Shown here: one piece after another, positions 51,083-58,375 of the stretch
Position numbering within the stretch: the stretch's first letter is position 1
Layout: every line of letters begins with the position of its first letter
Source of the DNA: Candidatus Saganbacteria bacterium
GTDB lineage: Bacteria; Margulisbacteria; WOR-1; XYC2-FULL-46-14
NCBI GenBank assembly: GCA_013202975.1
Contig: JABMQY010000136.1
Location: 6,178-70,177 of the forward strand
Reading direction: 5' to 3'
Length of the DNA stretch: 64,000 nucleotides
Program-made: the position numbers and the translations under genes
Notes under the pieces: model-generated
Told to the model about the DNA's origin: nothing
The model's input: only the letters and a program-made list of their open reading frames with translations
The model's database searches: none

Positions 51083-51203
51083 AAACATCAAACTTCAAGC
51101 ATCAAAATCCAAAATAAATCCAAACTTCAAATTTCCAAAGCCCAACTTTTTGAGGTTGGTATTTGGGATTTTGGATTTGTTTGGATGTTGGGTGTTTGAT
51201 GTT
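51083..51203. repeat. Long imperfect inverted repeat (~120 nt, CAAA-rich left arm / TTTG-rich right arm) after the mnmE stop; element family copy 1
   Basis: AACATCAAACTTCAAGCATCAAAATCCAAAATAAATCC..GGATTTTGGATTTGTTTGGATGTTGGGTGTTTGATGTT. Homologous to 58244..58375. Confidence 0.45.
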
Positions 51204-51261
51204 GGGATTTCCCTCTGAAAGAGGGCTGTGGATAACTTGTTGATAACTTAAGGAGGTAAAA

Positions 51262-52134
51262 ATGGGACAAATAATTGATGGGAAAAAATGCGCAAAGGAA
51301 ATTCGTGAGTCATTAAAGGTTGGAGTAGGGGAGTTGGAGAATCAGTTAAAAATAACTCCCAAGTTGGCGGTCGTTTTAATTGGAGATGATCCTGCCTCGT
51401 CCATTTACGTTAGGCACAAAGAAAAGGCTTGTGCTGAGGTTGGAATACTAACCGATACCCACAAATTTTCCTCTAATGTCGAGGAAAATGTGATCCTTAC
51501 GCTGATCGAATCCCTGAATCGTGAAAAGGATGTCCATGGGATCCTGGTGCAATTGCCTCTGCCAAAGCAGCTTCATGCTAAAAAGATATTGGCTGCAATT
51601 TCTTATGAGAAAGATGTTGATGGTTTGCACATCGAAAATATGGGAAGGCTATTGAAAGGGGAGGACCCTCTCTTTTTTCCCTGTACTCCGTCTGGAATAA
51701 TGCATTTAATTTTATCCACAGGCACAGAGATAAAAGGGAAAGAGGCCGTTGTAGTTGGAAGAAGTAATATTGTTGGTAAACCGATGGCATTGATGCTTTT
51801 GTCGAAGCATGCTACTGTCACAATTTGTCATTCCAGGACAACTGATTTGCCTGCTGTTTGTAGTCGTGCCGATATCCTTGTTGCTGCAGTTGGCAGGGCG
51901 CAAATGGTGAAAGAGAATTGGGTAAAAGAAGGCGCAGTTGTTATTGATGTTGGAATGAATCGCCTTCCTCCTCTGCCAGGCGAGAAAAAGGGAAAGCTGG
52001 TTGGTGATGTTGATTTTGATGCGGTCAGTAAAAAGGCTTCTTTTATCACTCCGGTCCCGGGTGGCGTAGGGCCGATGACGATTGCTATGTTGTTGAAGAA
52101 TACGGTGTTGTCGGCTAAGCGGTCAATTCTTTAA
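51262..52134 (+). CDS. folD: Bifunctional methylenetetrahydrofolate dehydrogenase/cyclohydrolase
   Basis: ..IIDGK..A..IR, GRSNIVGKPMA, PVPGGVGPMT are FolD motifs. Confidence 0.85.
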   Translation: MGQIIDGKKCAKEIRESLKVGVGELENQLKITPKLAVVLIGDDPASSIYVRHKEKACAEVGILTDTHKFSSNVEENVILTLIESLNREKDVHGILVQLPLPKQLHAKKILAAISYEKDVDGLHIENMGRLLKGEDPLFFPCTPSGIMHLILSTGTEIKGKEAVVVGRSNIVGKPMALMLLSKHATVTICHSRTTDLPAVCSRADILVAAVGRAQMVKENWVKEGAVVIDVGMNRLPPLPGEKKGKLVGDVDFDAVSKKASFITPVPGGVGPMTIAMLLKNTVLSAKRSIL

Positions 52135-52150
52135 TTCTACTAATAATTAA

Positions 52151-52193
52151 GTTACGGGAAGTTACGAGATGTTACTGAGCAACCTCCCGTAAC
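52151..52193. repeat. Three direct 10-bp-phased repeats GTTACGGGAA / GTTACGAGAT / GTTACTGAGC plus an inverted CCCGTAAC copy upstream of the second FGE-like gene
   Basis: Same repeat unit as 30363..30410. Confidence 0.45.
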
Positions 52194-52212
52194 CTTACTA
52201 TTGAAAATTACC

Positions 52213-52246
52213 TGAAATTTCCCAGCAAGCCTTCCGATATAAATCT
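52213..52246 (+). promoter_or_regulatory. TGAAATTT-N14-CGATATAAATCT motif; GTG 52247 12 nt after CGATAT
   Basis: Motif copy. Confidence 0.5.
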
Positions 52247-56187: not shown

Positions 56188-58110
56188 CTATGAGGCCTTA
56201 TAAAAACCTTTTGCCTCGTTATAGAGATCTGTTATCATCTGCCCTCTTTCTTCTTTTGCCTTAAGTGTTTGTATATTCATTTCGCCCGCTACTGTTTTTG
56301 CGTTATTCATATCATAATGATATTTTTTCATTGCAGTACGAAAGGCACTTCTTGCCTCGTCAGCGTTCATTCCTATTTCAAATCCTTCTCCCAAATCTGC
56401 CAGCTTTTTTGCTGCGACCTCTTCTTTGGACATTCCCTGGTTTTGTTGTTTAAAGTGTTTTTCTTTTTCTATTTCTAGCAATTTCTGCATTGCCATATGT
56501 ACATCGCCAGAAAGAGAAGAATAACATCTCTCTTCCCAGGAAGGATTTTGTTGGCGGGTTAGCATGCGTATTATGGTGACAACTTTTCCTGCTCTCATCG
56601 GATGAAGCTGGTTTAATGCCCTCGTTGCATCACTGTCGGCCCGGGTGATTAGATGCTCTGCGATCTGTTGGTCAGGGAGCTGATCAAGTCTCTCCGCACG
56701 AGGGGCTGGTGGTTTGGCGCTCAACCGGGCAGCCTCTAGCAGCATAGCAGAAAAGGCCTTTGCCATAACATCGTTCCACTTCCCAATTTCAAAAATCATG
56801 CGGTGTACCCACTGACTTAGTTCCTTCAGGGGAATATTCTCAAGTGCTAATTTAATTGCTCTTTGTGTGTTTAGCGATGAAAAGACGTAGGCAGCCCACT
56901 CATAATGCATGTTGGAGAGAGAGGAGAGAACTTCCCATATTGATTGATCGTCAGCGCCCTGAATAAAACGCAATAAGGCCTGATGCAATTGTGGGTACTG
57001 TTGTTGAGTGGTCTGCAATATAAATAATACTAATGCTGTGTGGGGTTGGTGATGAATAAAAAAGTAGTTCTGAGCTTTTGCGGCAATGCATGCAATAGAG
57101 TTTGGTCTTGCGAGTAAGAGGTTAAGCAACTGCGGATTGGAATGTAGCGCGGAGTAGACCCTCATTATTTGATCGAGATCCATGCTCTTTAGGCAGTTAG
57201 CTACGACATTATCCCCAAGGGAGGCTATTTGGCTTGCTGTTGATGGATCGCTTAGCAATATCCCAATGGTATCAGCCGGGAGGTTCCTTATTAATCTTGT
57301 TAGGTTTTGCGGGTCCTGGGCAATGATTCTTCTGAATACTCCATTCGCATTGAAGGGGTTGTGCCTGGCGGCGATGGTTAGCAACCCGGCATAATCGCGA
57401 TCTCCGACATATTCTGCATCAACCGGCATGCTTCCACATAATTTGTCACAAACATACATGCTGTCCGGTCCCAAAAAGGGCTCGAGCTTGTAACCTTCGT
57501 ATTCTTCATGCAGTTCTAATAATTGTTCAAGAGACAGGGATGCAACAATAGAACTTCTTGCCATGGCTTCGGTATTACGTAATACATGATAAGCCTTTTT
57601 GGGAGATAGGGCTGAAACAAGCTTATTTAGCTGTTCTCTCGAAAGAGGACGGTCTCGTCCATGGTCAAAATCTTCTTCAATTCCCTCGGCTAGGAGCTTA
57701 GGCTTTACCCCTGCTAAAACCTGTTGAGGGGAGGGATAGAAATCGAGCTCTTTGGCTGTCTGGGCAGTGGCAATTGCATCTAGGGCCACTTCAATTCTTT
57801 CTATAGGATCGTAAATATTGTTAATTACAGCATGGTGGGCCCGGGCTATACTTTTTCTTAGGGCGCTTGGCCTCTCCAAGTTTTGTGATGCTCCTCTTTG
57901 GCCCTTTTCCTCAATTATTAAGAGCTCCGCTGCATCACTGATGATTGCAGTTGCTTTTTGTGAATTAAGAATATTCCTTTCATAGCCCTGTACCCTTAAA
58001 TTATCAGGAACAATAAATCCGGTTGTTGTTTTCCATGCGCTGGTAAAAGCGTCCCTTAATCCCCCCGGGGGTGTTTTTCTTGTTCCTCTTGGTGGTGTTA
58101 TTGCCATCAA
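56188..58110 (-). CDS. Hypothetical protein (640 aa)
   Basis: Long ORF with motif promoter and leader hairpin upstream. Confidence 0.55.
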   Translation of the reverse strand: MMAITPPRGTRKTPPGGLRDAFTSAWKTTTGFIVPDNLRVQGYERNILNSQKATAIISDAAELLIIEEKGQRGASQNLERPSALRKSIARAHHAVINNIYDPIERIEVALDAIATAQTAKELDFYPSPQQVLAGVKPKLLAEGIEEDFDHGRDRPLSREQLNKLVSALSPKKAYHVLRNTEAMARSSIVASLSLEQLLELHEEYEGYKLEPFLGPDSMYVCDKLCGSMPVDAEYVGDRDYAGLLTIAARHNPFNANGVFRRIIAQDPQNLTRLIRNLPADTIGILLSDPSTASQIASLGDNVVANCLKSMDLDQIMRVYSALHSNPQLLNLLLARPNSIACIAAKAQNYFFIHHQPHTALVLFILQTTQQQYPQLHQALLRFIQGADDQSIWEVLSSLSNMHYEWAAYVFSSLNTQRAIKLALENIPLKELSQWVHRMIFEIGKWNDVMAKAFSAMLLEAARLSAKPPAPRAERLDQLPDQQIAEHLITRADSDATRALNQLHPMRAGKVVTIIRMLTRQQNPSWEERCYSSLSGDVHMAMQKLLEIEKEKHFKQQNQGMSKEEVAAKKLADLGEGFEIGMNADEARSAFRTAMKKYHYDMNNAKTVAGEMNIQTLKAKEERGQMITDLYNEAKGFYKAS

Positions 58111-58134
58111 TCTCCCCCTTTTTGGGAATGCTTG

Positions 58135-58156
58135 CCCTGTACCGAATGGTACTGGG
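58135..58156 (-). promoter_or_regulatory. Leader hairpin variant CCCAGTACCATTCGGTACAGGG (GTACC-ATTC-GGTAC core)
   Basis: Same ACC-AUUC-GGU loop region as the other two copies, with compensatory stem changes. Confidence 0.4.
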
Positions 58157-58162
58157 TTCTAC

Positions 58163-58202
58163 CTATCTTTATATATATCGTCAATTCCAAAAAGAAATTT
58201 CA
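58163..58202 (-). promoter_or_regulatory. TGAAATTT-N14-CGATATATATAAAGATAG motif (minus strand)
   Basis: Motif copy. Confidence 0.55.
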
Positions 58203-58243
58203 CCCAAATTTAAATTATTGTTATATAATCAGGTTAGGGAGAT

Positions 58244-58375
58244 AGAACATCAAACATCAAACTTCAAACCTCAAAATAAATCCCAACCACCAAACCCAAA
58301 ATTCAAAACCTTTTGGAATTTGGAAGTTGGGATCTTGGATTTATTTTGGATTTGGGATTTTGATGTTTGGATTTC
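58244..58375. repeat. Long CAAA/TTTG-rich inverted repeat, element family copy 2; overlaps the 5' end of ORF 58327
   Basis: AGAACATCAAACATCAAACTTCAAACCTCAAAATAAATCCC...GGATTTATTTTGGATTTGGGATTTTGATGTTTGG. Confidence 0.45.

Follow-up and report, generated by a model that had tools for sequence, protein, structure and literature searches.

A palindromic repeat of degenerate heptanucleotide units in Candidatus Saganbacteria, a candidate selfish element

Introduction

Repetitive extragenic palindromes (REPs) and bacterial interspersed mosaic elements (BIMEs), which are linked to RAYT transposases of the IS200/IS605 TnpA type, are found downstream of genes, often in 3' untranslated regions, and are not flanked by target-site duplications; REPs are 20-40 nt long and have a conserved GTAG-type head. 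The short tandemly repeated repetitive (STRR) sequences of cyanobacteria consist of heptanucleotides in tandem. Rickettsia palindromic elements (RPEs) are interspersed palindromes of about 100-150 bp, which are often present in frame in unrelated genes and are translated while the host protein stays intact; they are deemed selfish (PMC10969869). [quoted passage not shown] The repeat treated here occurs in a stretch of 64,000 nucleotides, referred to below as the window, of a Candidatus Saganbacteria genome (assembly GCA_013202975.1, contig JABMQY010000136.1, positions 6,178 to 70,177, forward strand). Two copies of a palindromic element built of heptad units have been inserted at unrelated sites in this Saganbacteria lineage, and a truncated copy is present in gcvT. 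The element is probably, though by no means certainly, an old selfish palindromic repeat of RPE/MITE type that signal peptides occasionally co-opt.

Heptanucleotide repeats form a second group with which the element has to be compared. The TAACTGA repeats of Beggiatoaceae, Cyanobacteria and Bacteroidetes are located near the starts and ends of genes, and within ORFs they are present only in the stop-free orientation (PMC4679880). Long simple sequence repeats (SSRs) of heptanucleotides have been attributed to polymerase slippage, at least in the summary of Mrazek (2007) given in PMC4679880. Saganbacteria are placed as a sister lineage of Cyanobacteria in bioRxiv 10.1101/328856.

Two copies of one palindromic element

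A preliminary description of the window had pointed to two CAAA/TTTG-rich copies of about 125 nt with a shared start and a shared inner sequence. Both were retrieved within 1-3 nt of where it had placed them:

51084..51203, plus strand: copy 1 of the palindromic heptad-repeat element, with a CAAA-type left arm (about 51084-51144) and a TTTG-type right arm (about 51150-51203)
58246..58375, plus strand: copy 2, with its left arm at 58246-58308 and its right arm at 58312-58375

In outline, the termini of the element read AACATCAAAC...GTTTGATGTT. The left end AACATCAAAC is located at 51084 and 58246, and the core CAAAATAAATCC, at 51110 and 58272, has the same offset from the left end in both copies. 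The right end TTTGATGTT occupies 51195-51203 in copy 1 and 58359-58367 in copy 2, where it is followed by TGGATTTC up to 58375. Using blastn within the 64-kb window, the two copies were found to be 76% identical over 129-132 nt, with E values of 1.5e-12 to 3.4e-14. Aligned globally, they are 73% identical, whereas controls with shuffled arms give 62% (maximum 67%); the similarity of the copies is real, yet it stands on a high low-complexity baseline. A two-anchor pattern derived from the four arms gave five matches, all of them in these arms, where 0.00 were expected from 100 shuffles. The sequence of copy 2 is identical in two metagenome contigs of the Joint Genome Institute (JGI), L121 and L122.

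Both copies form imperfect palindromes, for which arms of 48 and 65 nt were obtained at 71% complementarity. Both arms are degenerate arrays of 7 nt, with units of the form NNNCAAA in the first arm (CATCAAA, CTTCAAA, CCTCAAA, ATCCAAA etc.) and the complement TTTGNNN in the second. The left arm of copy 2 opens with an AACATCA array of 4.3 units, and the centre of the element, CAAAATAAATCC(C)AA, is less periodic. Tandem Repeats Finder detected period 7 in both copies: at 58246-58275 (4.3 copies, 91% matches), at 58311-58374 (9.4 copies, 66% matches) and at 51156-51208 (3.4-4.1 copies, 72-82% matches). Seven is the sole period for which several tandem arrays were observed across the window.

The mnmE-folD site of copy 1

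Copy 1 starts 6 nt downstream of the mnmE stop codon (TAA, 51075-51077), in line with its earlier placement just past mnmE. The gene order at this site is yidC, an unannotated 227-aa ORF in the position that jag occupies in relatives, mnmE and folD; in the relatives' contigs L249, L250 and L252 the order yidC-jag-mnmE-folD is retained. The CAAA/TTTG element is absent from the mnmE-folD spacer in all three. This spacer measures 184 nt in the window and 160, 69 and 37 nt in relatives with FolD proteins that are 81%, 79% and 70% identical, respectively. Its flanks are common to all four: CxGK and the stop codon on the left, and CTGTGGATAAnTTGTGGATAA followed by a Shine-Dalgarno site on the right. 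Because the spacers of the relatives lack the element while having the same flanks, copy 1 represents a lineage-specific insertion. A different palindrome (AAATTGTTTCACGTGAAACAATTT) is present at the post-mnmE site of L249 (around 9850-9880) and L250 (around 9935-9965), and the post-mnmE region of L252 is free of hairpins. The site thus seems to take different hairpins in different lineages and may be described as a hairpin-collecting site. Two small features are associated with the insertion:

51080..51199, plus strand: 39-codon ORF (MKHQTSSIKIQNKSKLQISKAQLFEVGIWDFGFVWMLGV), entirely inside copy 1, called by JGI as the 39-aa protein P0014
51211..51225, plus strand: hairpin CCCTCTGAAAGAGGG, short and rich in G+C, which separates copy 1 from a conserved pair of DnaA boxes

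The hydrophobic tail of P0014 is weak (maximum Kyte-Doolittle value of 1.3) and is broken by E and D, and the 39-codon ORF is probably not a real gene. The relatives are devoid of the hairpin CCCTCTGAAAGAGGG, which may be part of the inserted segment. The DnaA-box-like 9-mers TGTGGATAA (51227) and TGTTGATAA (51238), which together span 51227-51246, are located directly upstream of the folD ribosome-binding site, and the pair is conserved in L249, L250 and L252. The minimum of the cumulative GC skew is at about 46 kb, and two further DnaA boxes start at 47006 and 47027 (47006-47035). On the basis of this minimum and these boxes, oriC is placed beside dnaA, about 4 kb from the box pair at 51227 and a few kb upstream of copy 1.

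The lipoprotein gene at copy 2

Copy 2 overlaps the hydrophobic N-terminus encoded by ORF 58327, as had been proposed, and is preceded by sequences that look like expression signals:

58327..59298, plus strand: lipoprotein-like gene, with candidate starts TTG 58327 and ATG 58363 in the right arm of copy 2 and the lipobox Cys codon at 58387-58389
58224..58241, plus strand: TATAAT (58224-58229) and Shine-Dalgarno-like GGGAG (58237-58241), seen by eye, with the spacing of TATAAT, GAGG and ATG in a relative

The preliminary description had put copy 2 between a regulon promoter and this ORF. The overlap with the ORF holds. A consensus promoter scan did not report any promoter at either copy; upstream of copy 2, TATAAT and GGGAG are visible by eye. 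The product of ORF 58327 is 100% identical to NCBI protein P0001 from a Candidatus Saganbacteria metagenome-assembled genome (MAG), the annotated start of which is ATG 58363. All of the 12 homologues have a canonical MK...LxGC lipoprotein signal, and the window protein is the lone exception among the 13: its N-terminus reads MGSWIYFGFGILMFGFLFLGC from TTG 58327 and MFGFLFLGC from ATG 58363. The TTG start would give an uncharged run of 22 residues including the lipobox, compared to 19 in the relative, and ATG 58363 would leave just 8 residues ahead of the Cys. The h-region of the signal peptide is encoded by the right arm of copy 2, which is predicted to supply both the start codon and the hydrophobic core.

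In the DNA of the closest homologue (78% identical at the amino-acid level), TATAAT and GAGG are followed, after 7 nt, by ATGAAAACTTTG...CTTTTTTTGGGCTGC, and no element is present. In the window, TATAAT and GGGAG are followed by TAG, the whole element and then CTTTTTTTGGGTTGC, with an in-frame ATC (58249) exactly where the relative has its ATG. The lipoprotein frame is open through the entire copy 2 from TAG 58243 (NIKHQTSNLKINPNHQTQNSKPFGIWKLGSWIYFGFGILMFGFLFLGC). Since the relative has the same upstream signals without the element, copy 2 is a lineage-specific insertion that replaced roughly the first 13 ancestral codons, and the LFLGC lipobox is ancestral. The T-run after copy 2 is coding sequence rather than the tail of a terminator, because the relative, which has no element, also possesses the sequence encoding LFLGC. 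The annotated start ATG 58363 and protein P0014 are likely artefacts caused by the repeat.

Two observations concern the surroundings of this gene. No Pfam domain is present in the 640-aa ORF at 56188-58110, which diverges from the lipoprotein gene. The closest relative carries extra sequence between the 640-aa ORF and the lipoprotein homologue, and several independent assemblies break there (contig ends of L250 and L123).

A third piece in gcvT

A third piece of the element, unmentioned in the preliminary description, is located inside gcvT:

20261..20294, minus strand: left-arm fragment GATAAACATCAAACCTCAAACTTCAAACATCAAA, 34 nt, in frame inside gcvT, encoding ..INIKPQTSNIKK..

Over 31 nt, it matches the start of copy 2 at 93.5% identity (blastn, E 4e-8), and a flanking GATA is common to the two. 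When compared with two solved GcvT structures, the patch amounts to a net gain of 5 residues. Arrays of the TTGGGAA type with period 7 are also present inside gcvPA (18150-18182) and hisC (20666-20696). They encode GTGNWELGNGN and ELGTGNWKL, respectively, and do not change the length of the protein relative to solved structures. As a consequence, the gcvPA and hisC arrays look like overwritten loops rather than insertions.

Relatives of the element in other genomes

Metagenome contigs were scanned with patterns, so that the outcome was shaped by the patterns chosen. Most matches were chance matches, and the figures given below cover the matches listed. Among these, heptad-type relatives of the element are clear, and the family thus extends beyond the two copies in the window. 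The member on L140, a contig of 1.67 Mb, is 81% identical to copy 2 and is closer to it than copy 1 is. Those on L175, L220 and L233 are 72-75% identical, where shuffled sequences give a baseline of 62-67%. In L140, GGAGG is followed after 7 nt by an ATG, the entire element in frame and an LMVGC lipobox (LMVGCGKQ); the mature part of this lipoprotein is unrelated to that of the window lipoprotein. A GH26-family enzyme on L184 starts with MKNIKHQTSNF...GKIKPKSQIPTFWIWRFAIGIYFGFWILMFACLPVG (in shorter form, MKNIKHQTSNF...FWIWRFAIGIYFGFWILMFACLPVG). The n-regions of the L140 and L184 proteins have a net charge of +7 and +8 and are followed by 24-34 uncharged residues. Noncoding members, like copy 1, are located 4-18 nt past a stop codon in L111, L131 (two copies), L175 and L056. 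Left-arm halves were observed in frame in bioA (L213), in mnmA (L133) and in an ORF of L170, a Margulisbacteria relative.

Plain arrays of the heptad are far more widespread. With the start of the left arm as a query and one genome per species, more than 120 loci were obtained in Verrucomicrobia, Bacteroidota, Desulfobacterales, the Candidate Phyla Radiation and others, most of which are plain (AACATCA)n. Of 86 arrays that could be evaluated, 31 are located in frames that are open for at least 40 codons on each side. All 31 are read in the CAAA sense and none in antisense; on the antisense strand, TGA occurs in all frames. Among the genes that bear the arrays are some that look like der, argJ, queG and tatD; the inserts are of the TSNIKHQTS type and are often present in conserved enzymes. 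A preference of the plain arrays for protein N-termini was considered and rejected (3 of 84, against a background of 3.2%). The orientation of the element relative to genes was likewise discarded as a source of information, as the reverse complement has the same form, with a CAAA arm followed by a TTTG arm. One Desulfobacterales MAG (GMC2_bin_2) has many plain arrays at the ends of its contigs, and in the first 250 nt of L037, from a Flagellimonas MAG, AACATCA passes on the minus strand into AACACCA and then into (CCCTAAA)n, the plant-type telomere repeat. In viral contigs, plain (AACATCA)n arrays are few and the hairpin element was not found. A text search of the literature for the repeat and for peptide strings of the NIKHQTS type, in a collection that is incomplete, did not return any mention of them. 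The plain arrays may be footprints of the palindromic element or independent products of slippage.

The last possibility can be extended to the element as a whole. At each locus, a heptad array might have grown by slippage and acquired its complement by fold-back or template switching, so that nothing has moved. This agrees with the prevalence of period 7 in the window, with the scatter of plain (AACATCA)n over more than 120 loci in many phyla and with the largely generic heptad pairing of the stem described below. Heptanucleotides are, moreover, the commonest class of long SSRs in many prokaryotes, as stated in PMC4679880 and PMC4692102. Such local growth does not readily explain the collinearity of the two copies over about 125 nt, with the non-periodic core CAAAATAAATCC at an offset of 38 nt in each, nor the 81% identity that copy 2 shares with the L140 member from a different genome and a different gene. 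Independent events are not expected to yield variant units in one and the same order. The GATA shared by the flanks of the gcvT fragment and of copy 2 also argues against it, as does the fact that the three assemblies of copy 2 are identical and show no length variation by 7 nt. Independent growth of simple-sequence repeats is therefore considered unlikely.

Reading of the element as protein

The element could instead exist for what it encodes. As a protein-coding module, it would provide an export signal or anchor (in copy 1, a small membrane protein) and would have been spread by recombination, with the palindrome as a by-product. Three unrelated exported proteins, namely the window lipoprotein, the L140 lipoprotein and the L184 GH26 enzyme, have it at the N-terminus in the polar-then-hydrophobic order. 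Copy 2 and L140, which are read in the same frame, form the most similar pair (81%), and ATG AAA is present at the left end in copy 1, L140 and L184. Against this stands the observation that copy 2 and L140, at 81% nucleotide identity, share only 54% of their amino acids. As this value is close to 0.81 cubed, the expectation in the absence of constraint, the peptide sequence of the element is not conserved and only its general character is. In addition, many members are noncoding or closed by stops and sit past stop codons, the ORF of copy 1 stops before the element does and its hydrophobic tail is weak, copy 2 is without an upstream ATG, and half-elements reside inside cytoplasmic enzymes. 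Searches at the protein level did not yield a family either. The sole match of the element peptide in a word-indexed search was P0014, the JGI protein called from the ORF inside copy 1, and HMMER, run with the same peptide against 1.84 billion representatives, gave four weak internal matches in long repetitive proteins. A module of this kind is distinctly unlikely.

A related proposal combines mobility with coding. The element might be a portable export-signal cassette, that is, a mobile palindrome that encodes n- and h-regions whichever way it is read and is selected for this coding. By landing at the 5' end of a gene, it would replace an export or lipoprotein signal or create a new one, and would thereby re-target proteins. 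Its polar half-copies would account for the in-frame inserts of the NIKHQTS type in the housekeeping enzymes of many phyla. Such a cassette is improbable. N-terminal fusions number 3 in about 14 hairpin-type elements among the matches listed, compared to a background of 3.2% for random positions.

Folding of the element

The preliminary description had also foreseen a long imperfect stem between the CAAA and TTTG arms. Such a fold is indeed predicted, although the pairing is largely generic. On the plus strand, the minimum free energies are -46.6 kcal/mol for copy 1 and -43.8 kcal/mol for copy 2, corresponding to z scores of -4.6 and -3.4 against dinucleotide shuffles. Long hairpins are predicted for both strands; the plus strand folds better in copy 1 and the minus strand in copy 2. 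When the register of the arms is shifted by 0, 7 or 14 nt, complementarity is 66, 64 and 60% in copy 1 and 71, 61 and 56% in copy 2. Upon shuffling of bases within the arms, the fold still reaches -24 to -28 kcal/mol. Shuffles of 7-nt chunks give -27 to -33 kcal/mol, against observed values of -42 to -44 kcal/mol (z -2.4 and -3.8). Judged from these values, most of the fold is generic pairing of CAAA with TTTG, with a modest specific component on top.

The specific component does not appear to have been maintained. The chimera of the copy 1 left arm and the copy 2 right arm folds at -51.7 kcal/mol and the reverse chimera at -47.0 kcal/mol, compared to -44.4 and -41.6 kcal/mol for the native combinations. 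About 50 pairs are predicted in one copy; 12 of these are disrupted in the other copy, and just 2-3 show double changes. For seven family members, RNAalifold found only 10 consensus pairs (-5.9 kcal/mol). Covariation of the kind that the preliminary description proposed to look for was thus not observed between the copies, and the alignment of seven members is nearly empty. Better folding of the chimeras, uncompensated pairs and a near-empty consensus together indicate a palindrome that was inherited from a common ancestor and is decaying, with no upkeep by compensatory change. Transcripts of the element can be expected to form a long hairpin rich in A-U and G-U pairs, on the pairing of which the models detect no selection.

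These results bear on the view that the element is a functional RNA: a terminator or 3'-end stabiliser after mnmE, an attenuator that masks the starts of the lipoprotein gene, or a small RNA gene. The hairpins predicted on both strands fit this view, as do the native arms that outfold chunk shuffles (z -2.4 and -3.8), the location of TTG 58327 and ATG 58363 inside the stem and the TTTCTTTTTTT run that follows copy 2. Copy 1 and at least five family relatives start 4-18 nt past a stop codon, and relatives carry other palindromes at the post-mnmE site; the post-stop position is equally compatible with a mild 3'-end stabiliser and with a neutral, safe site. On the other side, Rfam 15 gave no match at gathering score in the whole window and permissive scans returned only sub-threshold hairpins of the miRNA-precursor type, while a terminator scan found no terminator-like site at either copy. 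The T-run belongs to the ancestral LFLGC coding sequence, which is present in the relative without the element. The preferred folding strand is not the same in the two copies, the chimeras fold better than the native arms, one in four pairs has changed with no compensating change, the consensus of seven members comprises 10 pairs, and L252 manages without any post-mnmE hairpin. The small RNA, attenuator and terminator candidates of the preliminary description thus found no counterpart in Rfam, in the terminator scan, in a consensus structure or in compensatory changes, and a function at the RNA level is given only a slim chance. A phase-variation switch, in which slippage of the 5' heptads would shift the lipoprotein frame as in neuO, is hardly tenable: heptanucleotide phase variation is documented (PMC13001214) and an AACATCA-type array of 4.3 units is present at the 5' end of the lipoprotein gene, but just two of the units are identical, no in-frame ATG precedes the array, TAG 58243 closes the frame, three independent assemblies are identical and copy 1 is outside any gene.

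A probable old selfish palindrome

The explanation that is favoured, with confidence that is real but limited, is that of an old selfish repeat, palindromic and composed of heptad units, resembling RPEs and MITEs and occasionally co-opted by signal peptides. The element would be selfish or neutral DNA that depends for its copying on a mechanism supplied in trans. Its persistence would stem from the permissiveness of its sequence. With hardly any T in the first arm and hardly any A in the second, stop codons are rare, and two of the three frames are open through each copy. Because the element is palindromic, either orientation reads as a stretch rich in Lys, Gln, Asn, Ser and Thr followed by one rich in Phe, Gly, Ile, Leu and Trp. 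Judged from the sequence, this polar-then-hydrophobic reading would mimic the n-region and h-region of a signal peptide. Whole elements would consequently survive just past stop codons, as in copy 1, or at the 5' ends of genes that encode exported proteins, as in copy 2, while polar half-elements would be tolerated in the surface loops of cytoplasmic enzymes, for instance in gcvT.

Several points weigh against a selfish palindrome. No target-site duplication is visible at the junctions of either copy, nor are there sharp ends, and neither a transposase nor an autonomous partner was identified in the window, which was not screened for one. Two copies and one fragment are all that was seen, within 64 kb, and nhmmer found no further copies in about 90 kb of relatives' DNA. 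The low-complexity baseline of 62-67% makes the case for homology of the distant members (L184, L131b) weak. The ATG expected from the ancestral arrangement, or from one like that of L140, is missing in the window, which has TAG at 58243 and ATC at 58249. The excess of N-terminal fusions comes from a small sample that was not independently ascertained and is only weakly above chance.

If the explanation is correct, uncultured Saganbacteria and their relatives carry selfish palindromic DNA like that of Rickettsia, built of heptanucleotide units, a class of repeats the origin of which is still unexplained. It would also offer a concrete and testable way in which signal peptides are rewritten and enzymes gain loops through junk repeats. 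In practical terms, the elements probably cause wrong start calls (MFGFLFLGC) and spurious small ORFs (P0014).

Other repeats in the window

A few other repeats were encountered. A decamer array (GTAACNTCCC, 4.5 copies, 30366-30410) is located directly upstream of a TATAAT and of ATG 30431; its helical-phase spacing suggests an array for the binding of a regulator. The palindrome CATGAACCATWCGGTTCAT is present twice (30300-30319 and 36633-36652), and a near-identical palindrome, CCATGAACCATTACGGTTCATGG, is found upstream of the lipoprotein homologue on the Margulisiibacteriota contig L128, at about 9953-9980. Beside the start of a minus-strand gene, an A/T-rich palindrome at 26803-26867, with arms of 32 nt that are 81% complementary (AATCCAAATTAAAAATTTCCCAATTAAAAACA and its complement), is possibly a much-diverged relative of the element.

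Comparison with known systems

The short G+C-rich stem with a direct U-tract that characterizes intrinsic terminators was not found at either copy. From REPs, the element differs in that a GTAG-type head was not seen; no RAYT gene was met, and none was sought. The heptanucleotide SSRs and the TAACTGA repeats share with it the 7-nt unit and a patchy spread over distant phyla. They are, however, arranged head to tail from one nearly perfect unit, whereas the element consists of degenerate units in two facing complementary arrays, with a non-periodic core and an order of units that are conserved between the copies. The units themselves (AACATCA, AACTTCA, AACCTCA, AATCCAA) are also different from TAACTGA.

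Of the candidates named in the preliminary description, the MITE-like mobile repeat is the one favoured here. The length of 120-130 nt is within the usual range of about 50-500 bp, and the sole internal ORF is a low-complexity frame of 39 codons. Both copies have terminal inverted repeats, AACATCAAA(C) on the left and (G)TTTGATGTT on the right, which are of low complexity, a type that MITE finders usually filter out. At both sites, presence in the window contrasts with absence in relatives. The suggestion draws support from empty orthologous sites, from unrelated loci in other genomes and from inverted-repeat termini, while no target-site duplication and no partner transposase were found, so that the element can be called MITE-like or RPE-like in its behaviour. 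Unlike in MITEs, no target-site duplication is present at the junctions set by the empty orthologous sites, the copies are old and strongly diverged (73-76% identity), and the imperfect palindrome, which has simple-sequence character, takes in the entire element instead of its ends only.

In its behaviour, the element appears to work most like the RPEs. It shares with them the in-frame N-terminal insertions (copy 2, L140, L184) and the in-frame pieces in gcvT, bioA and mnmA. It differs from them in its hosts, which are Saganbacteria and other uncultured groups instead of Rickettsia, in its arms made of degenerate heptanucleotide units, and in the polar-then-hydrophobic peptide that it contributes at signal-peptide positions, which is unreported for RPEs in PMC10969869. 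In conclusion, the element presently stands as a repeat family and not as a new kind of system.

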